DNA from: Methylorubrum extorquens
GTDB lineage: Bacteria > Pseudomonadota > Alphaproteobacteria > Rhizobiales > Beijerinckiaceae
Assembly (NCBI GenBank): GCA_900234795.1
Contig: LT962688.1
Coordinates: 1,380,001-1,412,000 of the forward strand
Direction of reading: 5' to 3'
Length of the DNA stretch: 32,000 nt
The translations under genes were made by a program, and so were the position numbers. Of this stretch, positions 259 to 29,028 are shown piece after piece (the stretch's first letter is position 1; each line of letters starts with the position of its first letter). Below the pieces are notes generated by a model. That model was not told the origin of the DNA. It saw only the letters and a list, made by a program, of their open reading frames with translations, and searched no databases.

Positions 259-335
259 TGGCAGGAGTGGAGGGACTCGAACCCCCAACCCCCGGTTTTG
301 GAGACCGGTGCTCTGACCAGTTGAGCTACACTCCT
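259..335 (-). tRNA. trnW: tRNA-Trp (anticodon CCA)
   Basis: The reverse complement reads AGGAGTGTAGCTCAACTGGTCAGAGCACCGGTCTCCAAAACCGGGGGTTGGGGGTTCGAGTCCCTCCACTCCTGCCA. It has a 7-bp acceptor stem (AGGAGTG/CACTCCT), an anticodon stem CCGGT/ACCGG with loop CTCCAAA, a GGTTCGAGTCC T-arm and an encoded 3' CCA. It closely resembles E. coli tRNA-Trp. Confidence 0.93.
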
Positions 336-19980: not shown

Positions 19981-20259
19981 TCAGCCTTTGACGGTCGCCG
20001 TGAAGTCGGACCATTGCTCGACGCGGAAGGCGCGCAGGTCGCGCACCGAGGCCGGGAACCACGGCAGGGCCTTCAGTGCCGCGATGGCTGCGAACAGCTT
20101 CGCCAGATCCTCGTCGCGGCTGACGTAAAGGCTCCCCTGAACCCAGTTGAATCCTTGCCGGGCGAGCACCGTGCGGATGTCACTGTAGGCTTGTGCGATG
20201 CCCTTCGGATGATGGGCCTGCGTCTCGACGACGACCAGATCGAAGGCGATTGCGAACAT
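19981..20259 (-). CDS. vapD: VapD-family endoribonuclease (Cas2-like fold), putative toxin
   Basis: 92 aa. MFAIAFDL...QAYSDIRTVLARQGFNWVQGSLYVS...VRDLRAFRVEQWSDFTATVKG aligns along its whole length with my recollection of Helicobacter/Haemophilus VapD (MYALAFDL...GFEWTQGSVYV...VRDIRAFKVEDFSDFTEIVKS). Confidence 0.9.
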   Translation of the reverse strand: MFAIAFDLVVVETQAHHPKGIAQAYSDIRTVLARQGFNWVQGSLYVSRDEDLAKLFAAIAALKALPWFPASVRDLRAFRVEQWSDFTATVKG

Positions 20260-20471
20260 CAGCCTTCCGCAGGGTCTTCGAGAAGGTCTGTGAGCGGGTA
20301 GTCAAGCTCCTCACCCGTCTCCAAGACGCGAATCCGCATCTGCGGGTGATCCGCGGCCTTCGGCTCCGTCACGCCGACGATTTCATAGACAGGCCCAGCC
20401 GAGCCGAAGCGCCGCCATGAGCCGATCAGGCTGCGGGGTTCTTGGAAAGCCGCAGGCTTCGCATCGAGCAT
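20259..20471 (-). CDS. Small protein upstream of vapD, putative cognate antitoxin/partner (70 aa)
   Basis: The ORF reads MLDAKPAAFQEPRSLIGSWRRFGSAGPVYEIVGVTEPKAADHPQMRIRVLETGEELDYPLTDLLEDPAEG. Its stop overlaps the vapD start (TGATG at 20261-20257). It has an acidic C-terminus. No family is assigned with confidence. Confidence 0.55.
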   Translation of the reverse strand: MLDAKPAAFQEPRSLIGSWRRFGSAGPVYEIVGVTEPKAADHPQMRIRVLETGEELDYPLTDLLEDPAEG

Positions 20472-20549: not shown

Positions 20550-23500
20550 TCAGGCCGCCCGTGCCACAGCCTCGGCCGCCGCGTGCACCACGGGCACGGC
20601 AGGCGCGCCCTCCCATTCCGAATGTGCCGGGATCGACTCGCCCTTCATGACGATGGTGAGCGGGCGCAGCCGCGCGTAGTCGCCGACATGGCTGTCGTAG
20701 AGGACGGTGGAGAAGGCGCCCACCGTGACGCCGCGCCCGACCACGACGCGGCCGACCTTCATGATGCGATCCTCGTAGAGATGGGTCTGGAGCGCGGCCG
20801 AGCGGTTGATCGCCGCGAAGTCGCCGATCTCGACGCAGTCGAACTCGGTGATGTCGGTCATCAGCAGGCAGGCGCCCTTGCCCACCTTCACGCCGAAGAG
20901 CCGCAGCATCCAGGGCAGGAACGGCGTGCCCATCAGGTGCTCCAGCAGCACCTTGCCGGCGAGTCCCCAATAGGCGACGGCGATCGCCTCGGTCCGCATC
21001 GCCCACCACGACCACATCGGCCGCATGCCGGGGCGGTAGCGTCCCATCAGGAGCCATTTGAGGGCGATGACGCTGCTCGTCTGGATCAGCGCGATGGCGA
21101 GGCTCACGAGCACGAAGGCAAGCGCCAGCCCGCCCCAATCCTCGGCGAGGATGGCCGGGTAGAACACCCAGTCGATCGCGCAGATGGCGAGCGAGATGTA
21201 GAGCATCGGCGAGAACGAGGTGGCGAAGGCCTCGAACAGGCCGCGCCGCAGCTTGGCCCACACGCTCGGCTCGAAGGTCTGGGCGTTGGAGCCGAGATCG
21301 ACCTTCTGGCGGACCGGCAGGCGGATCGGCGGTGAGCCGAACCACGTCTCGCCCGGCCCCATCTTGTCGTTGGCCGGCGGCTTCGACTTGATGCCGATCA
21401 GCACGTCGTCGGGGATGTGCGCGCCCGGCGGCAGCACGCCGTCATTGCCGACGAAGACGCGGGCGCCGGTCTCTACGGGATGGAGATGCATCCAGCCGCG
21501 GCGGATCTCCTCCTCGCCGACCACCACCTCGTCGGCGATGAAGTTGTTGGCGCCGACCGCGACGAGGTCGTGGCGCGAGCCGAGATTGGTCGAGATCTCG
21601 GCGCCCCTTCCCATCCGCGCGCCCATCAGCCGGTACCAGGCCCGCATGTAGACGGTGGCGAACAGCGAGGAGAGCGTCTCCAGCGTCACTTCGGAGGCGA
21701 GCGCCACCAGCCACTTGCGCAGGTAGAAGCCCGACCAGATCGAGAAGGTGCCGTGCGTGACCCGCGGCAGCACCGCCCAGCGGATGGCGGCGATGAGCAG
21801 CACCGTGCCCGCCGTCATCAGCATGGCGGTGGGCCAGGTCAGCAGCGGCAGGTAGACGTGGTAATCGACGTCGGTGAGTTCCGAGAGGTTATCGGAGATC
21901 TGGTCGAAGAGGTAGAAGGCCGGGAAGATCGGCAGCAGGCCGACCGCCGGCACCGCCGCGAGCAGGAAGGCGTAGACCGCACCGAAGGCCGCCCGGCGGG
22001 CGGGCGAGGCGGTGGCCGGTTCGGGCAGCGCGGAAAAATCGACGGTGCCGACCCGGCGGCCCGGCGAGCCGTCCCAGGCCTCGGCCGGGCCGACTTCGGT
22101 GCCGGCCGGCACGGTGGTGAGGTCGGCGATCTCGGCATGGTCTCCGATCACCGTGCCGGGGCCGATCACGCAGGAGGTGCCGATGGCGACATCCTCGCCG
22201 ATCTCGACGGAGCCGATGACGAGTTCGTTGCCGACGACCTCCGCGTTGGCGATCACCAGCCGCCCGCCGAGCGACGCGCCGCGGCCGATGGTGAGCAGAT
22301 CGGGTGCGCCGACATCGAGGTCGGAGATCAGCACGTCATCGCCGATCCGCGCGCCGAGCAGGCGCAGATAGGTGACGATGACGGGGGAGCCCTGGAGCCA
22401 CTTGATGTGCACCAGCGGCGTCAGGCGCTGCGCCAGCCACCAGCGGTAATAATAGACGCCCCAGAGCGGATAGCGGCCGGGCTTTGTCCGCCCGAGGATC
22501 AGCCATTTGGCGGCGATCGCGATCGTCGCGGTGACCGCGTTGATGCCGATATAGACCAGCAGGAGAACGCCGAGTTCGCCCCAGAAGCCGAGCCCGCCGC
22601 CGGTGAGCAGCAGGTAGGTGACGAAGATGCCGAGCCATTGCGCGGTGGCCAGCGCGATGACGAAGGGCAGCGTGATTGCCTGCGCCAGCCCGCAGAGCGC
22701 CCGGCGCAGCAGCGGGGGCGGAGCAAAGCTCAGGTCGCGGATCGCGGTCTGGGCGCCGGCCCCGCCCGTGCGCTCGATCAGACTCGCGGCCATCACCCGC
22801 AGGGTGCGGCCGTTATAGACGTCCTGCAGGGTGATGCCAGCGAGCGCCGGGATCTCGCGCACCGCACCGACGAAGCGGGCGGCGAGCAGCGAGTGGCCGC
22901 CGAGTTCGGAGAAGAAGTCGGCCTCGAGCCCGATCGGACCGTCGCCGAACACCTTTTTCGCCGCCGCCAGCAAAGCGGCCTCGGTCTCGTTGTCGGGGGC
23001 CTCCTGCTCGCCGTCGGCCACCGCCACGGTCAGCGGCGCGATCCGAAGCGCCTTGCGATCGACCTTGCCGGAGGTGAGCCGCGGCAGGGTCTCGACCGTC
23101 TCGAAATGGCCGGGCACCATGTAGGGCGGCATCTGCGCCGCGAGATTCTTTCGCAGCGCCGCGCGGTCGAGGGCGGCATTCCGCTCAGGCACGAGGAAGG
23201 CGACGAGGCGGTCGACCTCGTCGTCGCGGCGCAAGACCACCGCCGCCTGATTGATCCCGTCCTGCGCCCGGATGCGCGCCTCGATCTCGCCGAGCTCCAC
23301 GCGAAAACCGCGGATCTTGACCTGATCGTCGATGCGGCCGTGGAAGACGATGTCGCCCTCCGGCGTCATCGAGACCGCGTCGCCCGAGCGGTAGAGTACC
23401 GGATCGGCCCCGTCGGACGGGTAGGGGTTGGCGACGAATTTTTCCGCCGTCAGTTCGGGCCGCTTGAGGTAGCCGGCCGCGACGCCGGGGCCGCCGATCA

Positions 23501-24656
23501 GCAGCTCGCCTTGCTCGCCCGGCGCGAGGAGGTTCAGCGCCTCGTCGGCGACGTAGACCGAATAATTCGGGATCGGGCCGCCAATGGTGACGGGCCGGCC
23601 CGGCCGCATCTCGGCGGCGGTCGCCACCACGGTGGCTTCGGTCGGGCCGTAGGTGTTGAACAGGCGCCGCTCACGGATCGCCCAGCGCGCCACCAGCGGC
23701 TCGGGCAGGGCCTCGCCGCCGAGCAGCACGAGGCGGACACTCGGCAGGTCGCCGGGGATCATGGCGAGCAGGGTCGGCACCGTGTCGAGCACGGTGATCC
23801 CGGCCTCCGCGATGATCGCGGGCAGGGATTCGACGTCGCCCATCATCGCCGGGCTCGCCACGAACAGGCAGGCGCCGACGAGATAGGGAACCCAGATCTC
23901 CTCCATCGAGAGATCGAAGGCGACGGAGGCGCCCTGGAACACCACGTCGTCGGCGCCGAGGCCGTAGACCGCGTTGCCCGAGCGCAGGAAGTGGCAGATG
24001 TTGGCGTGGCTGATGACGATGCCCTTCGGCACGCCGGTCGAGCCCGAGGTGTAGATCAGGTAGGCCGGGTGCTCCGGCCCGAGGCCGGCAGCGTCGAGAT
24101 CGGGCGCGGAGGCTCCCTGCCGGGCCCGCAGAAGCGCTTCGGTGGTGACGGCGGGCGTGCCCTCCGGTGCCTGCGGCCGCAGGGCCTCCGAGACGAGGAG
24201 CGCCTTGGCCTCGGCATCGTTCAGGCAGACCGCGACCCGGTCGGCGGGCGCCTCGGCGTCGAAGGGCAGCCAGGCGGCGCCGGATTTCGTGATGCCGATC
24301 TGCGCGATCAGCAGTTCGGTGCCGCGGGCCATCCACAGCCCCACGACGTCGCCGGGGCCGATGCCGCGGGTGGACAGCCCGGCGGCGATGGCGTCGGAAC
24401 GGGCATCGACCTCCGCATAGGACAGGACCGGACGGCGCCCGCCGGAGCCGGGCTCAGCGGCGTCGATCAGGCAGGGCGCGTCAGCGCGCGCAGCGGCGCT
24501 CGCCCGGAACAGGTCGGCCAGGGTCTCCCGGCGGATCAGATCGGGCCGCGCAGCCCCCCGTAGAACGGCGCGGCCACCGAGGCGCTCGCCCGGTCCTTCG
24601 TCGTGCCGTCCCACCTCGGCGAGACCGCTCATCCGATGCTCTGCTGCCGATTCCAC
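20550..24656 (-). CDS. Pls/PosA-family single-module non-ribosomal peptide synthetase (A-T plus three membrane-embedded LbH/acyltransferase-like domains); putative homopoly(amino acid) synthetase
   Basis: 1368 aa from GTG 24656, or 1360 aa from ATG 24632. Adenylation cores are LSYAEVD, TKSGAAWLPFD, YLIYTSGSTGVPKG, FDLSMEE, NTYGPTE, GELLIGGPGVAAGYL, YRSGD, GRIDDQVKIRGFRVELGEIE, PPYMVP and SGKVDRKAL. The carrier domain has FFSELGGHSLLA. No C or TE domain is present. Instead there are three tandem repeats, each with two hydrophobic helices followed by a hexapeptide-repeat segment (for example IGDDVLISDLDVGAPDLLTIGRGASLGGRLVI). Confidence 0.9.
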   Translation of the reverse strand: MESAAEHRMSGLAEVGRHDEGPGERLGGRAVLRGAARPDLIRRETLADLFRASAAARADAPCLIDAAEPGSGGRRPVLSYAEVDARSDAIAAGLSTRGIGPGDVVGLWMARGTELLIAQIGITKSGAAWLPFDAEAPADRVAVCLNDAEAKALLVSEALRPQAPEGTPAVTTEALLRARQGASAPDLDAAGLGPEHPAYLIYTSGSTGVPKGIVISHANICHFLRSGNAVYGLGADDVVFQGASVAFDLSMEEIWVPYLVGACLFVASPAMMGDVESLPAIIAEAGITVLDTVPTLLAMIPGDLPSVRLVLLGGEALPEPLVARWAIRERRLFNTYGPTEATVVATAAEMRPGRPVTIGGPIPNYSVYVADEALNLLAPGEQGELLIGGPGVAAGYLKRPELTAEKFVANPYPSDGADPVLYRSGDAVSMTPEGDIVFHGRIDDQVKIRGFRVELGEIEARIRAQDGINQAAVVLRRDDEVDRLVAFLVPERNAALDRAALRKNLAAQMPPYMVPGHFETVETLPRLTSGKVDRKALRIAPLTVAVADGEQEAPDNETEAALLAAAKKVFGDGPIGLEADFFSELGGHSLLAARFVGAVREIPALAGITLQDVYNGRTLRVMAASLIERTGGAGAQTAIRDLSFAPPPLLRRALCGLAQAITLPFVIALATAQWLGIFVTYLLLTGGGLGFWGELGVLLLVYIGINAVTATIAIAAKWLILGRTKPGRYPLWGVYYYRWWLAQRLTPLVHIKWLQGSPVIVTYLRLLGARIGDDVLISDLDVGAPDLLTIGRGASLGGRLVIANAEVVGNELVIGSVEIGEDVAIGTSCVIGPGTVIGDHAEIADLTTVPAGTEVGPAEAWDGSPGRRVGTVDFSALPEPATASPARRAAFGAVYAFLLAAVPAVGLLPIFPAFYLFDQISDNLSELTDVDYHVYLPLLTWPTAMLMTAGTVLLIAAIRWAVLPRVTHGTFSIWSGFYLRKWLVALASEVTLETLSSLFATVYMRAWYRLMGARMGRGAEISTNLGSRHDLVAVGANNFIADEVVVGEEEIRRGWMHLHPVETGARVFVGNDGVLPPGAHIPDDVLIGIKSKPPANDKMGPGETWFGSPPIRLPVRQKVDLGSNAQTFEPSVWAKLRRGLFEAFATSFSPMLYISLAICAIDWVFYPAILAEDWGGLALAFVLVSLAIALIQTSSVIALKWLLMGRYRPGMRPMWSWWAMRTEAIAVAYWGLAGKVLLEHLMGTPFLPWMLRLFGVKVGKGACLLMTDITEFDCVEIGDFAAINRSAALQTHLYEDRIMKVGRVVVGRGVTVGAFSTVLYDSHVGDYARLRPLTIVMKGESIPAHSEWEGAPAVPVVHAAAEAVARAA

Positions 24657-24878
24657 GTGCTGCCCATTCCCGGATCGGTCGAACCCCGCGCCGACGCTGG
24701 CGGCGCGCGATCCCGCGCCCCATGCTCGGCACCCTTGGCGGTTTTGCGACAGGATCGCGCCATACGGATGATTGTGGTCGAGAGACCCGCCCGGATGTCC
24801 CGCACGCGTTCCATATACGGGATGGGCGGCCAGGAAACCGGTCTTCCCGAACAGCCCGGACCTGCGATGCCGCCCGGC

Positions 24879-25772
24879 TCAGCCGGTGACGAGGTGCAGG
24901 GCCCGGTCGGCCGGCGCGATCCGCACCTGCCGGCCCCAGCCGAAGCCGAGAAAGTCCTGCTCGATTCCGTCGGCGAAGATCACGCCGCCCTCGTTCATCC
25001 GCGAGGTGACGACCAGCGGCGCATCGGTGAGCTTGCCGGCGCGCAGCCGCGTCGCGGTGGCGACGCTCGGGAACGGCTCGCGCACCCAGTAGCCCACCGC
25101 CCGCTCGTCGGGCTCGAGCGGCAGGTCGAGCCGGGTCGCCTCACTGATCGAGCGGGCCCAGCCGGTCGCCCCGGTGCCGGAGGCGACGATAAGGCCGCTG
25201 GAGGAATGCTCCTCCGCCTCGCTTCCGGCCTCGATCCGGTAGCGCGCGGATTGGTGGCTGCGGTGGCCGACAAAAATCTCGTTGAGGGCGAACAGGCGCT
25301 CGGTGCCGTCGATCACCGCCTGGACCATGGTGCGCCGCTCGATTGCGGCCGCGCCGGCGACGCTCGCCGGCAGCAGCCGGGCCAGCCGCTCGACGGGGTT
25401 GCGCGCCAGCACGCCGTCATAGAGGTCCGGCGCCGGGTTCACCCCGATCACCGGCTGCTCGCCTAGATACTTGGCGACGTTGGCGATCAGCCCGTCCTGC
25501 CCGACGGCGACGACCACGTCGTCCCCGGCGAACAGGAAGCGGTCGAGGTCGGCCCGCCGCACCAGGGCCTGGCGCCACTCGCCCGGCACCGCGGCCCGCG
25601 CCTGTGCCAGCACCGCGTGGAAGCGCTCGTGGCGGGCCTCGACCGCGGCGAGCCCCTGGCCGCGGCTCTCGAGGAAGAAGCGGGCCTGTCCCCGCGTGGC
25701 GTGCCGGGCGATCAGCAACTCGTAATCGGTCTCGCGGGTGACGAAGACCACCCGGGGGGTAAGCGCGGCCAT
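24879..25772 (-). CDS. NAD kinase-fold protein (ATP-NAD kinase/DAGK superfamily), atypical
   Basis: 297 aa. VVVAVGQDGLIANV replaces the GGDG motif. NEIFVG matches the NE/D motif. SSGLIVASGTGATGWARS matches the Gly-rich TPTGSTAY-like motif. The start lies 9 nt after the SPFH gene stop. Confidence 0.75.
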   Translation of the reverse strand: MAALTPRVVFVTRETDYELLIARHATRGQARFFLESRGQGLAAVEARHERFHAVLAQARAAVPGEWRQALVRRADLDRFLFAGDDVVVAVGQDGLIANVAKYLGEQPVIGVNPAPDLYDGVLARNPVERLARLLPASVAGAAAIERRTMVQAVIDGTERLFALNEIFVGHRSHQSARYRIEAGSEAEEHSSSGLIVASGTGATGWARSISEATRLDLPLEPDERAVGYWVREPFPSVATATRLRAGKLTDAPLVVTSRMNEGGVIFADGIEQDFLGFGWGRQVRIAPADRALHLVTG

Positions 25773-25781
25773 GAGCCCCCC

Positions 25782-26762
25782 TCAGCGGGCCGGAAGGCTG
25801 GCCGGCCGGCGGACCTCGCCGAGCAGGGTGGCGAGGAGGTCCGGCGTGACGTTCACGTGCTCGATCGTGTCGAGCTTGCCCGCCAGCGCCTGGGCGGCCA
25901 GCCCGAGCAGGGTGCCCGGCGCCACGTCGCGGTAGATCGCGATGCGGGCCCGCTCGGCCTCGGCCCGCGCGCCCTCGACCATGCGGATGCGTTCGGCCTC
26001 GGCGCCGGCCTCGATCCCTTCCGCCTCCGCCCGCGCCTGCGCTCGGTTGCGGGCGTTCTGCGCTTCCTCGGCGATCAGCAGGCTCTCGCGCCGGGCCAGT
26101 TCGGTCTTGGTGGCGAGTTCGTTCTCGGCGATGGCGCGCTCCTTCTCCACCGCCAGCGCCCGGCGGGCGAAGGTGGCCTCGTCCGCCTTCTGCTGCAGCG
26201 CCTCGTAGGTCGGTGTCTGGAGCGCGCGCTCCAACTCGCTCGACGGAGCGAGGTTGGTGAGCCGCACCGAGACCACCGCGACGCCGATCTCGGCCAGCGA
26301 CGGATCGTTGGCGAGCGTCGCCTGCACCTGCCCGCGCAGGGCCTCCGGCCCGGCATCGAGCAGGGTGCGCACCGGCGCGGTTCCGAGGAATTGCAGCACG
26401 GTCTGGTTGGCCAGCCCGGCGATGCGCGCCTCGATCCGCTCGACCGGCTCGGTCTGGAGCCGGCCGGTGCGCAGATCGAGGGAGAAATCGACGCGGGCGG
26501 CGAGCCGCTCGGGATCGGCGACGTGCCAGCCGATGCTGCCCTGCACCGCAACCGCCTGGAAATCCGCGCTGCGGCCGCGGACGAACAGCGTCATCTCGCG
26601 GTCGTCCATCGGCAACTCGCTGATGCTCGCCGTCTCCGGCCGGAACCAGAAGACGAGGCCGCGCCCGCTCTGGCGCGGGCGGCCGTTGCGGTAGCGGATG
26701 ACGTAGTGGCTCGCCTCGCTCCTGAGCTGGGAGAGCACGCCGAAACGGCGGATCGTGGCCAT
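25782..26762 (-). CDS. SPFH/Band-7 (stomatin/flotillin-like) domain protein lacking an N-terminal membrane anchor
   Basis: 326 aa starting at ATG 26762 (MATIRRFGVLSQL). The SPFH core ends in VVSVRLTNLAPSSELERALQ, followed by an Ala/Glu/Arg coiled coil (AEEAQNARNRAQARAEAEGIEAGAEAERIRM). No hydrophobic N-terminal helix is visible. Confidence 0.85.
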   Translation of the reverse strand: MATIRRFGVLSQLRSEASHYVIRYRNGRPRQSGRGLVFWFRPETASISELPMDDREMTLFVRGRSADFQAVAVQGSIGWHVADPERLAARVDFSLDLRTGRLQTEPVERIEARIAGLANQTVLQFLGTAPVRTLLDAGPEALRGQVQATLANDPSLAEIGVAVVSVRLTNLAPSSELERALQTPTYEALQQKADEATFARRALAVEKERAIAENELATKTELARRESLLIAEEAQNARNRAQARAEAEGIEAGAEAERIRMVEGARAEAERARIAIYRDVAPGTLLGLAAQALAGKLDTIEHVNVTPDLLATLLGEVRRPASLPAR

Positions 26763-26763
26763 G

Positions 26764-27543
26764 TCAGTCTCCTTGAGCGGGGGTCTGCCAAGAGGTTTGG
26801 GACGGGGTCTGCGAAGAGGTTTGGCGAAGGCGGTACAGCTCGGCGGGGCGATAGGAGGTGCCCGTCTCGAACCGGCCGGTGGGGTCGAGCCAGCCGCGGT
26901 CGAGCATGCGGCGGCGGAAGGCGGGCTTGTTGAGGCCCGTGCCGAGGATCGCCTCGTGCACGTCCTGAAGCTGGCGCAGAGTGAACAGCTCCGGCAGCAG
27001 GGCGAAGCCGACCTCCGAATAGTCGAGCTTGCCCCGCAGACGCCGGATCGCCAGCGCGACGATCTCGGCGTGGTCGAAGGCGAGCGGCAAAGCCGCGCCG
27101 TCGGCCGCATGGACCGTCACGGATCCCTCCGCCGCGGGCGACGCCGCGACCGCGCCGGGAATCAGGGCCGGGGCCCGCGCCCGTGCCTCGGCGAAGGCCG
27201 CCTCGGTCAGGAGCGCGAGATAGGCGACCGTGATGATGCGCATGCGCGGATCGCGCTCCACCGCGCCGAAGGTGTAGAGCTGCTCCAGATGCGCCCGCGC
27301 CCCGCCCGCCTTCTCGCGCAGGACGCGCGCGGCGGCGTCATCCAACGACTCGTCGATCCCGACGAAGCCGCCGGGCAGCGCATGGCGCCCCGCATGCGGG
27401 TGCCGGTCGCGCTTCAGCAGCAGGAGGGTCGGGCGACCGCCGGAAAGGCCCAGCAGCACCAGATCGACGGCCACGGCCGGCCGGGCGTAATCGGCGGGAT
27501 CGTAGCGCGCCAGGAAGGCGGCCTCGGATTCGGCTTGGCTCAT
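26764..27543 (-). CDS. NrtR-like Nudix-related transcriptional regulator (degenerate Nudix domain plus C-terminal winged helix)
   Basis: 259 aa. The Nudix box GGFVGIDESLDDAAARVLREKAGG keeps Gx5E and the Arg but has lost two of the three REUxEE glutamates. The C-terminal FTLRQLQDVHEAILGTGLNKPAFRRRMLDRGWLDPTG matches the NrtR wHTH region. The stop lies 1 nt before the SPFH start. Confidence 0.85.
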   Translation of the reverse strand: MSQAESEAAFLARYDPADYARPAVAVDLVLLGLSGGRPTLLLLKRDRHPHAGRHALPGGFVGIDESLDDAAARVLREKAGGARAHLEQLYTFGAVERDPRMRIITVAYLALLTEAAFAEARARAPALIPGAVAASPAAEGSVTVHAADGAALPLAFDHAEIVALAIRRLRGKLDYSEVGFALLPELFTLRQLQDVHEAILGTGLNKPAFRRRMLDRGWLDPTGRFETGTSYRPAELYRLRQTSSQTPSQTSWQTPAQGD

Positions 27544-27564
27544 AGGATCACGCCCGATCCAGCT

Positions 27565-27605
27565 TATATTCGACTGGCATATTAGTTATTCTCGTATCGA
27601 ATATA
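27565..27605. promoter_or_regulatory. AT-rich inverted repeat, candidate operator/promoter in the nrtR-like / PepSY divergent region
   Basis: TATATTCGA (27565-27573) and TCGAATATA (27597-27605) form a perfect 9-bp inverted repeat with a 23-nt AT-rich spacer (CTGGCATATTAGTTATTCTCGTA). It lies 22 nt upstream of the nrtR-like ATG and is the most AT-rich patch in the window. Confidence 0.4.
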
Positions 27606-27803
27606 TGTCAACGCGGCTCTCGATCTCGGGCGCGCCGGCGCCGGCCCTATCGATCTCTGGCCCTGTCGATCGTCGGCGGCGCGCACCAGCATGCCTCGAA
27701 CGCAGTGACGCGCTGCAACCAAGCGGCGGCTCGGACCGTTCTGTGGGTCCGCAACAAGCTCGAGCGCCTCAGGCGCCGACACAAGAAACGGAAAGCCCGC
27801 CAC

Positions 27804-28421
27804 ATGAAGACGAATTTCCTGCGCCTCACCGCCGCCACCGGCCTGCTGACCCTGATGACCGGCCTCGCCGCGGCCCAGAACCCCGACCTGACCAAGAACC
27901 CGGAGAACTCCGGCCGCGCCCCGAGCGCCACGGAAGCGACCAAGTCCAACAGCGACCTCAAGGAGTGGCAGGTCGCCAAGTCGGCCAAGGTCGGCCTCGC
28001 GCAGGCCATCGCCACCGCCGAGGGCAAGGCCGAAGGCGAAGAGAAGGGCGGCAAGGCGATCGACGCCGACTTCGAGAAGGCCGACAGCAAGAACCCGGCG
28101 CACTACTCGATCAAGGTCGTGTACCCGAGCGGCAAGCTCGTCGAGCACGGCGTCAACGCCGACACGGGCGATCTCTACAAGAGCGAGAACCAGCCGTTCG
28201 AGCGCTACTTCACCCGGCTGAAGGCGAGCGACTTCCAGAACGCCAAGGTCTCGCTGAAGGACGCGATCAAGCTCGCCGAGCAGAAGAGCCCCGGCAGCAA
28301 GGCCTACGAGGCCGAGGTCGAGCGCGAGGGCAATGCGGTCGAGTACGAGATCAAGCTGGCGCTCACCGACCGCGAGCAGGAGGTCAAGGTCAGCCCGGAC
28401 GGCACGGTGAAGAACGACTGA
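27804..28421 (+). CDS. Secreted PepSY-domain protein (two PepSY-like repeats)
   Basis: 205 aa starting at ATG 27804. The signal peptide is MKTNFLRLTAATGLLTLMTGLAAA. Two modules have the pattern K(V/A)(G/S)L..AI..AE...G.......E.E......Y.(I/V)K. Confidence 0.75.
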   Translation: MKTNFLRLTAATGLLTLMTGLAAAQNPDLTKNPENSGRAPSATEATKSNSDLKEWQVAKSAKVGLAQAIATAEGKAEGEEKGGKAIDADFEKADSKNPAHYSIKVVYPSGKLVEHGVNADTGDLYKSENQPFERYFTRLKASDFQNAKVSLKDAIKLAEQKSPGSKAYEAEVEREGNAVEYEIKLALTDREQEVKVSPDGTVKND

Positions 28422-28470
28422 TCCCGCTTAAAAGCCGCCCTCGTCAGGAGAGGCGCTCGAGCGGCGATCG

Positions 28471-28752: not shown

Positions 28753-29028
28753 CTAACGGGCCTCGTGGCCCTTGCCGCTGGCGCCGGGCGAGGAACCGGA
28801 GCCGGCATCGTTGGCGCCCGTGCTGTTGGCCGTGCCGGAGCGGCTCTTGTCGCCCGAAGTCGGGCCGCTTCCGGCCGCCCCGGGGGACGCCCCCGAACCG
28901 GCATCGTTCGGCCCCGTGCTGTCGGCCGTGCCGGAGCGGCTTGTGCCGGAAGCCCCCGTGCCTTCGGCGGCGAAGGCCGCGGGCGCGAGCAGGAGGGTGC
29001 TGGCGAGGGCGAAGGTCAGAGCCTTCAT
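28753..29028 (-). CDS. Small secreted Gly/Ser/Thr-rich repeat protein (91 aa)
   Basis: The signal peptide is MKALTFALASTLLLAPAAFAA. The mature part holds two copies of SRSGTA(D/N)STG(P/A)NDAGSG(A/S)SPGA, encoded by a 96-nt imperfect tandem duplication. Confidence 0.6.
   Translation of the reverse strand: MKALTFALASTLLLAPAAFAAEGTGASGTSRSGTADSTGPNDAGSGASPGAAGSGPTSGDKSRSGTANSTGANDAGSGSSPGASGKGHEAR

Follow-up and report, generated by a model that had tools for sequence, protein, structure and literature searches.

The NrtR family of Nudix-related transcriptional regulators was defined in 2008 (Rodionov et al. 2008, Nucleic Acids Res 36:2047; PMC2330246), and according to that paper, the Synechocystis and Shewanella proteins are released from DNA by adenosine diphosphate ribose (ADP-ribose). 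In its Table 1, one type of regulon is written as 'nrtR<#>nrtX-nrtY' or '#nrtR2; #nrtX-nrtY' and is listed for Streptomyces, Kineococcus, Frankia, Proteus mirabilis, and Hahella; the pathway is entered there as '?', and the domains of nrtX and nrtY are not stated in the main text. The present analysis concerns a locus of this type in Methylorubrum extorquens. It lies in a stretch of 32,000 nt (contig LT962688.1 of assembly GCA_900234795.1, positions 1,380,001-1,412,000), which is referred to as the window and to which the positions below apply.

In the list of open reading frames (ORFs) of the window, the following three genes run in the same direction on the minus strand:

26764-27543, minus strand: nrtR, Nudix-related transcriptional regulator of 259 residues; Nudix box degenerate, winged helix at the C terminus

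25782-26762, minus strand: nrtX, anchorless SPFH/Band-7 protein of 326 residues; the SPFH domain is followed by a conserved helix, then by a variable stretch rich in Ala, Glu, and Arg and by a C-terminal segment that is conserved

24879-25772, minus strand: nrtY, protein of 297 residues with a predicted NADK2-type NAD-kinase fold and the motifs GQDG, NE, SSSG, and GTGxTGW

The junction between nrtR and nrtX reads TGA-c-ATG, with a spacer of 1 nt, and that between nrtX and nrtY reads TGA-ggggggctc-ATG, with a spacer of 9 nt. The same packing had been described in the original prediction, made from the sequence alone, and was confirmed by the ORF coordinates and by the reads of both junctions. 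Its further claim, that the trio is one tight unit, was borne out by the spacing and by the recurrence of the arrangement in 85 loci from many phyla. A single operon nrtR-nrtX-nrtY is strongly supported.

The trio itself is not new, as it was predicted by comparative genomics in 2008. The Methylorubrum populi orthologue, which is 93% identical to the window kinase, carries the UniRef name 'NrtR-regulated protein NrtY', and the SPFH-kinase pair was recovered here in Streptomyces and Proteus, two taxa listed in Table 1 of PMC2330246; for these reasons, the nrtX and nrtY of that table are probably the SPFH and kinase families. The original prediction had known of no characterized pathway that combines the three proteins. 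The combination is not unknown, because it most likely corresponds to the nrtR/nrtX-nrtY regulon of that table and the name is already attached to a close orthologue. The name NrtY has spread into annotation, and the SPFH-kinase pair is without an experimental function after 18 years; no later report of nrtX or nrtY function was found in the literature searched. In SEED, the two genes are named Band 7 and PpnK-type.

In the reading preferred here, to which a probability of about 0.6 is given, the locus is the Methylorubrum copy of nrtR-nrtX-nrtY, an operon derepressed by ADP-ribose that supplies an NADK2-type kinase of nicotinamide adenine dinucleotide (NAD(H)) together with its SPFH partner. 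NrtR, with a Nudix box that appears catalytically dead, would bind an inverted repeat (dyad) in front of nrtR and repress its own operon. Upon accumulation of ADP-ribose, a breakdown product of NAD, NrtR would leave the DNA, by analogy with other NrtRs. NrtY would then act as an inducible second NAD(H) kinase and shift the NAD(H)/NADP(H) balance (NADP(H), the phosphorylated form), and NrtX, as a soluble or peripheral SPFH oligomer, may bind, scaffold, or gate NrtY. An NAD- or ADP-ribose-responsive module had already been proposed in the original prediction and is kept as the best reading, in view of the known nrtR regulon, a link to NAD salvage in Sphingomonas, and the kinase fold of NrtY.

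By family models, NrtY gave weak, sub-threshold matches to Pfam NAD_kinase and DAGK_cat. An AlphaFold model was built from a 48-sequence alignment and reached a predicted local distance difference test score (pLDDT) of 95.8. When this model was compared with the PDB by Foldseek, the top matches were structures of human mitochondrial NADK2 (7R4J and 7N29), with template modeling (TM) scores of 0.69-0.73. Lower TM scores, of about 0.55-0.63, were obtained next for NAD kinases of bacteria, archaea, and yeast and for the human cytosolic enzyme. All of the top 50 PDB matches were NAD kinases. A predicted NADK2-type NAD-kinase fold with two domains is therefore strongly supported by the model. A diacylglycerol or lipid kinase, as the weak DAGK_cat match might imply, was ruled out because every close structural neighbor is an NAD kinase.

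The searches by sequence gave the same picture. NADK2 was the only PDB match of the NrtY sequence alone (E 4e-8), and the profile of the NrtY family scored 86 bits against NADK2 (E 1.5e-23) compared to 40 bits against the best canonical NAD kinase. Signatures of homologues of C5orf33, the human NADK2, were reported by Ohashi et al. 2012 (PMC3535332) as PxxGxN(T/S)DP, SxGxx, NE/D, and a Trp that is invariant where GSTAY has its Tyr. NrtY carries PVIGVNPAP, SSGLIV, GTGATGW, and N164-E165, and a (V/I)REP motif also aligns with NADK2. The validated NADK2 residues D161, W319, and K76 align with D93, W205, and R13 of NrtY, respectively. Across 48 representatives of the NrtY family, W205 never varies and D93 hardly does, and most have a basic residue at position 13. 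Judged by this alignment, it is strongly supported that NrtY retains the catalytic Asp, the Trp that stacks on nicotinamide, and the basic contact to the diphosphate. The GGDG motif reads GQDG in NrtY; in the same representatives, G91 and G94 are invariant and position 92 is variable. An NAD-kinase fold with a GQDG motif, as originally predicted, was confirmed by the model, the Foldseek comparison, and the motif alignment.

An ordinary NadK, which would have counted against the prediction if it were also the only one of the organism, does not agree with the data. The best score of NrtY against the curated NadK equivalog models was 33.7 bits, with cutoffs of 211-470 bits, and a 4.09-Mb record of Proteus mirabilis contains NrtY together with a canonical NadK that shares 74% identity with the E. 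coli enzyme. Streptomyces coelicolor has one gene annotated as NAD kinase, SCO1781, which is distinct from nrtY.

To determine the distribution of the module, an 11-sequence NrtY alignment was scanned against a genome collection in which each species is represented once. A relative was found in at least 596 species, and the 80 loci among the matches listed span Alphaproteobacteria, Myxococcota, Acidobacteriota, Planctomycetota, Actinomycetota, Chloroflexota, and others. These loci, supplemented with plasmid and contig loci, make up the set of 85 used for comparison, with some counts taken over 84. At the protein level, 7528 NrtY homologues were obtained at E ≤ 0.001 among 8000 candidates scored, and the top matches came from Methylorubrum and Methylobacterium.

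An SPFH gene was located immediately upstream of the kinase gene in all 85 loci. The two genes overlapped or were at most 15 nt apart in 74 of 84 loci, with a median of 2 nt, and this tight spacing suggests translational coupling and a physical complex. The two genes form an obligate, probably translationally coupled pair. A gene for nrtR was adjacent in 65 of 84 loci, being upstream on the same strand in 41, divergent in 22, and downstream in 2. It was not found in the flank of the remaining 19, three of which are cut contigs; the Streptomyces loci, where an adjacent nrtR is missing, agree in this respect with Table 1 of PMC2330246. A fourth partner was sought by clustering all flanking ORFs, and no other family occurred in more than 9 of 84 loci, the commonest extra neighbors (up to that number) being generic ATP-binding cassette (ABC) ATPases, histidine kinases, and short-chain dehydrogenases. 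The module is self-contained, consisting of nrtX and nrtY, usually with nrtR. Conservation of the neighborhood across genomes, by which the original prediction was to be judged, was thus found.

A link to NAD metabolism was observed in three Sphingomonas loci (L018, 4615-9207; L021, 906-5504; L023, 4711-9207), which share the order pncA-like <> nrtR-nrtX-nrtY-pncB. In these loci, pncB starts within the last codons of nrtY and matches TIGR01514 with 290-298 bits, above the equivalog cutoff, and a nicotinamidase-like gene of the isochorismatase family diverges from the nrtR promoter region. As judged from this gene order, the Sphingomonas trio is in one predicted transcription unit with Preiss-Handler salvage. 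A different association was seen on a metagenome contig (SRR22387796_508235; L086, 1143-5725), where nrtR is accompanied by an ADP-ribosylglycohydrolase gene (PF03747), a gene for a 213-residue protein, and an nrtX::nrtY fusion. The 574-residue NrtX::NrtY product (P0207) was considered as Rosetta-stone evidence and set aside, since it comes from a single metagenome contig and is missing the first ~17 NrtY residues, including the basic residue; the fusion may be a deletion or an assembly artifact.

The assignment of the regulator was based on several matches. The window NrtR matched Pfam NUDIX (PF00293) at E 5.9e-10, above the cutoff, and NrtR_WHD (PF21906) at E 2.6e-22, with 79 bits against a cutoff of 27. 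It aligned over its full length with Shewanella NrtR (3GZ5, E 3.6e-31), and AraR (5BS6) was also matched. Against NCBIfam NF050029, which models an ADP-ribose-responsive repressor, it reached 159 bits, where 400 are required for an equivalog; it is a family-level relative and not an equivalog of that clade. Its Nudix box, G59-x5-E65-x7-R73-V-L-R-E-K-A-G (RVLREKAGG), differs from the consensus REUxEExGU in that two catalytic glutamates are replaced. The degenerate box and the NrtR winged helix of the original prediction were both found again in this way. Degenerate boxes of the RVLxxKAG type were also observed in most NrtRs of proteobacterial, myxobacterial, and acidobacterial loci. In the divergent loci of Actinomycetota (L054-L085), the NrtRs beside nrtXY have an intact Nudix signature, RELxEETG, and could, to judge from this motif, be catalytically active.

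Two candidate control elements were located in the 260-nt region upstream of nrtR:

27564-27606, no strand assigned: candidate NrtR operator, a dyad of about 45 bp with nested inverted repeats, 20-60 nt upstream of the nrtR start

27606-27611, minus strand: TTGACA hexamer abutting the dyad, conserved upstream of nrtR

The outer arms of the dyad are TATATTCGA and TCGAATATA, which form a perfect 9-nt inverted repeat, TATATTCGA-N23-TCGAATATA, at 27565-27605. From an in-register alignment of 18 alphaproteobacterial upstream regions, the consensus TTGACATATATnCAAnnCGCATATnAGTAAnnnGCAnnnTGnATATAnGG was obtained for the 45-bp nested dyad, whose center occupied an identical position in 15 of the 18 loci. 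A weight matrix was trained on 16 loci, with the window and its closest relative left out. At 27564-27606 it scored 55 bits on one strand and 51 on the other, and the next sites, with at most 5 bits, overlapped this region; outside it, no site of the window scored higher than -8 bits, compared to a window mean of -69. The TTGACA hexamer is nearly invariant in the 18 orthologous upstream regions. In a sigma-70 scan of 24400-28000, no consensus promoter and no -10 element matching TTGACA was detected, so the hexamer could represent either a -35 element or the outer border of the operator.

In actinobacterial divergent loci, the intergenic region contains two 21-bp palindromes, TTATCGTCAnnnTGACGATAA, with a GT-N7-AC core, and GT-N7-AC is given as the common NrtR site consensus in PMC2330246. 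The alphaproteobacterial dyad is regarded as a putative lineage variant of the NrtR site. A regulator that binds canonical NAD-salvage promoters elsewhere and not its own upstream region would have counted against the original prediction; a conserved candidate operator was found in that upstream region.

Some SPFH proteins form large rings or cages. NrtX matched Pfam Band_7/SPFH (PF01145) with 55 bits against a cutoff of 23.6, and its profile gave weak matches to HflK and stomatin (E 6e-4 to 3e-3). Membrane helices were sought in NrtX and 25 orthologues with a 19-residue Kyte-Doolittle window, and no candidate was found. The maximum hydropathy was 1.17 for the window protein and at most 1.68 across the 26 sequences, and the maximum was never at the N terminus, which confirms the anchorless SPFH protein of the original prediction. 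In all 26 sequences, a conserved N terminus, MAxI, precedes the SPFH domain. The domain is followed by a helix that is strongly conserved (ALQTPTREAIQQxADEATFxRRAxAVEKERAIAENEL) and by a stretch rich in Ala, Glu, and Arg that differs in length; toward the C terminus, a segment is again conserved (YRDxPPxVLxGLAARELAGKLxxIEHLNxxPDLL). By analogy, this layout resembles that of ring- or cage-forming SPFH proteins.

Several observations weigh against an ADP-ribose-derepressed operon for an NAD(H) kinase. The NrtY family does not conserve the second Gly of GGDG, and the adenine-stacking His191 of NADK2 corresponds to Val121 in NrtY, at a position that is also not conserved. No nrtR is adjacent in 16 loci with adequate flanks. 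The alphaproteobacterial dyad is without the GT-N7-AC core, and the binding of NrtR to it is deduced from sequence; the substrate of NrtY and the role of NrtX are likewise what we infer. The altered GGDG together with the lost His191 makes a substrate other than NAD(H) possible. NrtY might phosphorylate ADP-ribose, nicotinic acid adenine dinucleotide (NaAD), or a signaling nucleotide, in which case the module would detoxify or convert an NAD breakdown product instead of contributing to NADP(H) synthesis. Such an activity is considered unlikely. It would fit the change to GxDG across the family, the loss of the His191 equivalent, the position of NrtY far under every curated NadK equivalog cutoff, the ADP-ribosylglycohydrolase gene within one cluster, and the role of ADP-ribose as effector of characterized NrtR relatives in PMC2330246. 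Conservation of the nicotinamide-contacting Trp, the basic diphosphate contact, and the NE motif speaks for NAD(H) instead, as do the true NAD kinases that fill all 50 top structural matches and the co-operonic pncB, which fits management of the NAD pool.

The two remaining explanations concern the surroundings of the trio. On the same strand, 222-246 nt downstream of nrtY, the following gene is located:

20550-24656, minus strand: Pls/PosA-family single-module nonribosomal peptide synthetase (NRPS), with adenylation, carrier, and TIGR02353 C-terminal region with hexapeptide repeats

The Pls-like synthetase of the original prediction was confirmed by a match to TIGR02353 at 587 bits. It had further been suggested that the cassette regulates this enzyme, and support by co-transcription or by cofactor supply can be imagined as well: the gene follows nrtY closely, and since no intrinsic terminator was predicted in the gap, read-through transcription is possible. 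Adjacency of a Pls-like gene, however, was found in Methylorubrum only (L001, L002, and L006; 3 of 85 loci), with no such gene in the flanks in other Methylobacterium, in Sphingomonas, in Mesorhizobium, or in any other lineage. Over the whole window, the weight matrix gave no operator-model site in front of the Pls gene, and the 246-nt spacer between nrtY and this gene showed no RNA family match in Rfam and no unusual fold (z 0.11). Control or support of the synthetase is considered improbable, and the Pls-like gene is most likely a chance neighbor in Methylorubrum.

Several known defense systems center on NAD and ADP-ribose, and the original prediction had raised a stress or abortive-infection role. 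In such a system, an effector associated with SPFH would respond to an ADP-ribose or NAD signal and drain or convert NAD. The patchy phyletic spread of nrtXY and its copies on plasmids and chromids could be taken in this sense, but they fit an accessory metabolic module equally well. With the PADLOC-DB 2.0 models, no matches were obtained for NrtR, NrtX, NrtY, or the Pls-like protein; no NrtY homologue was present in the phage collection searched, no defense gene recurred beside nrtXY in 84 loci, and no paper linking the families of the trio to defense was found in the literature searched. The Sphingomonas locus is joined in an operon with NAD salvage genes, and the window flanks are of a housekeeping kind, with transporters, a suf cluster, and the NRPS. 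The trio is not a component of a defense island, and an anti-phage function is considered very improbable. Most likely, the trio serves NAD(P) balance rather than phage defense or control of the peptide synthetase. With the locus read as an ADP-ribose-derepressed operon for an NADK2-type kinase, the question is narrowed to a self-contained module that is linked to NAD salvage in some genomes and encodes a predicted NADK2-type kinase whose key residues appear intact.

Among the mobile copies, the Acinetobacter lwoffii plasmid pALWED1.1 (L004, 4094-8841) carries tetR(H)-tet(H) directly after a complete nrtR<>nrtX-nrtY, and on p405tetH of Actinobacillus pleuropneumoniae (L087, 428-2797), a 3' fragment of nrtY occupies the same position beside tetR(H). 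Fragments of the 3' part of nrtY were also observed on small plasmids of Mannheimia, Psychrobacter, and Wohlfahrtiimonas. These arrangements suggest that tet(H) was mobilized from a genome in which nrtXY was its neighbor. In metagenome-assembled genomes (MAGs), nrtX-nrtY with nrtR was found in one labeled as a Halobacteria archaeon (L027), and nrtX-nrtY in one of Patescibacteria (L058); both occurrences could be due to lateral transfer or a binning error.

In the window, the trio is flanked by an amino-acid ABC transporter, transporters of the drug/metabolite transporter (DMT) and ArsB/CitMHS types, the NRPS, a hydrolase, and the suf cluster, and composition is even throughout. A gene for a secreted PepSY-domain protein (27805-28422, plus strand) diverges from nrtR, and the 260-nt intergenic region is common to both. 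Beyond it, at 28753-29028 (minus strand), a 91-residue protein with a signal peptide is built of repeated SGTA(D/N)STG(P/A)NDAGSG units. Just downstream of the NRPS (19981-20471, minus strand), a DUF5397 gene (70 residues) overlaps by 1 nt a 92-residue ORF without a family match, a layout that resembles a toxin-antitoxin pair. A tRNA gene at 262-335 (minus strand; 70.5 bits) was the sole Rfam match in the window.

When the locus is compared with described systems, the nrtR/nrtX-nrtY regulon of PMC2330246 shows the three families in identical order and likewise has a palindromic candidate site upstream. The 2008 survey did not report NrtR regulons in alphaproteobacteria. Compared to the arrangements of its Table 1, the window nrtR is predicted to be co-transcribed upstream, not divergent or unlinked; the nested dyad proposed as operator is longer, at 45 bp, and lacks the GT-N7-AC core. 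The characterized NrtRs of Shewanella oneidensis, Synechocystis, Mycobacterium smegmatis, and Pseudomonas aeruginosa are repressors of NAD synthesis or salvage. They resemble the window protein in the combination of Nudix and winged-helix domains, in the degenerate signature, and in a predicted operator that covers the promoter of the regulator's operon, and they differ in their targets, which in the window are predicted to be nrtX and nrtY and not nadV, pncB, or nadABC. A further point of similarity is that some orthologous Sphingomonas loci carry pncA-like and pncB genes.

Among SPFH systems, HflK/C-FtsH, stomatin-NfeD, and the flotillins share with NrtX an SPFH domain followed by helical or coiled-coil-like segments and a dedicated partner gene next to it. 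Unlike these membrane-anchored systems, NrtX is without a transmembrane or hairpin anchor in the 26 sequences compared, and no NfeD- or FtsH-type partner was found among the conserved neighbors, the partner of NrtX being a kinase.

Canonical bacterial NadK/PpnK shares the fold and the core motifs with NrtY, but NrtY scores 33-40 bits against NadK models or structures, and its distribution is patchy and accessory. Closest in both sequence and structure are human NADK2 (7R4J, 7N29) and plant NADK3. NADK2 and NrtY have in common an N-terminal strand with a basic residue (K76 and R13, respectively), the Asp in GxDG, and the PVIGVN, NE, SSG, GTGxxxW, and (V/I)REP motifs. In contrast to NADK2, NrtY has no animal-specific dimerization insert, no conserved second Gly in GGDG, and no His191, its gene is paired with an SPFH gene, and it is predicted to be under NrtR control. 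The origin of the eukaryotic mito-clade NAD kinases was reported as unknown in a 2019 phylogenetic study (PMC6675116), and NrtY is a candidate bacterial relative of this clade. A 'nadK2' paralogue of mycelial actinobacteria, also from PMC6675116, may or may not be NrtY. Tentatively, NrtY may be the prokaryotic counterpart of the mito-clade enzymes NADK2 and NADK3, possibly their sister or source, working in an obligate complex with an anchorless SPFH oligomer and switched on by ADP-ribose through NrtR. If so, at least 596 species representatives would possess a regulated, scaffolded second route to NADP(H).

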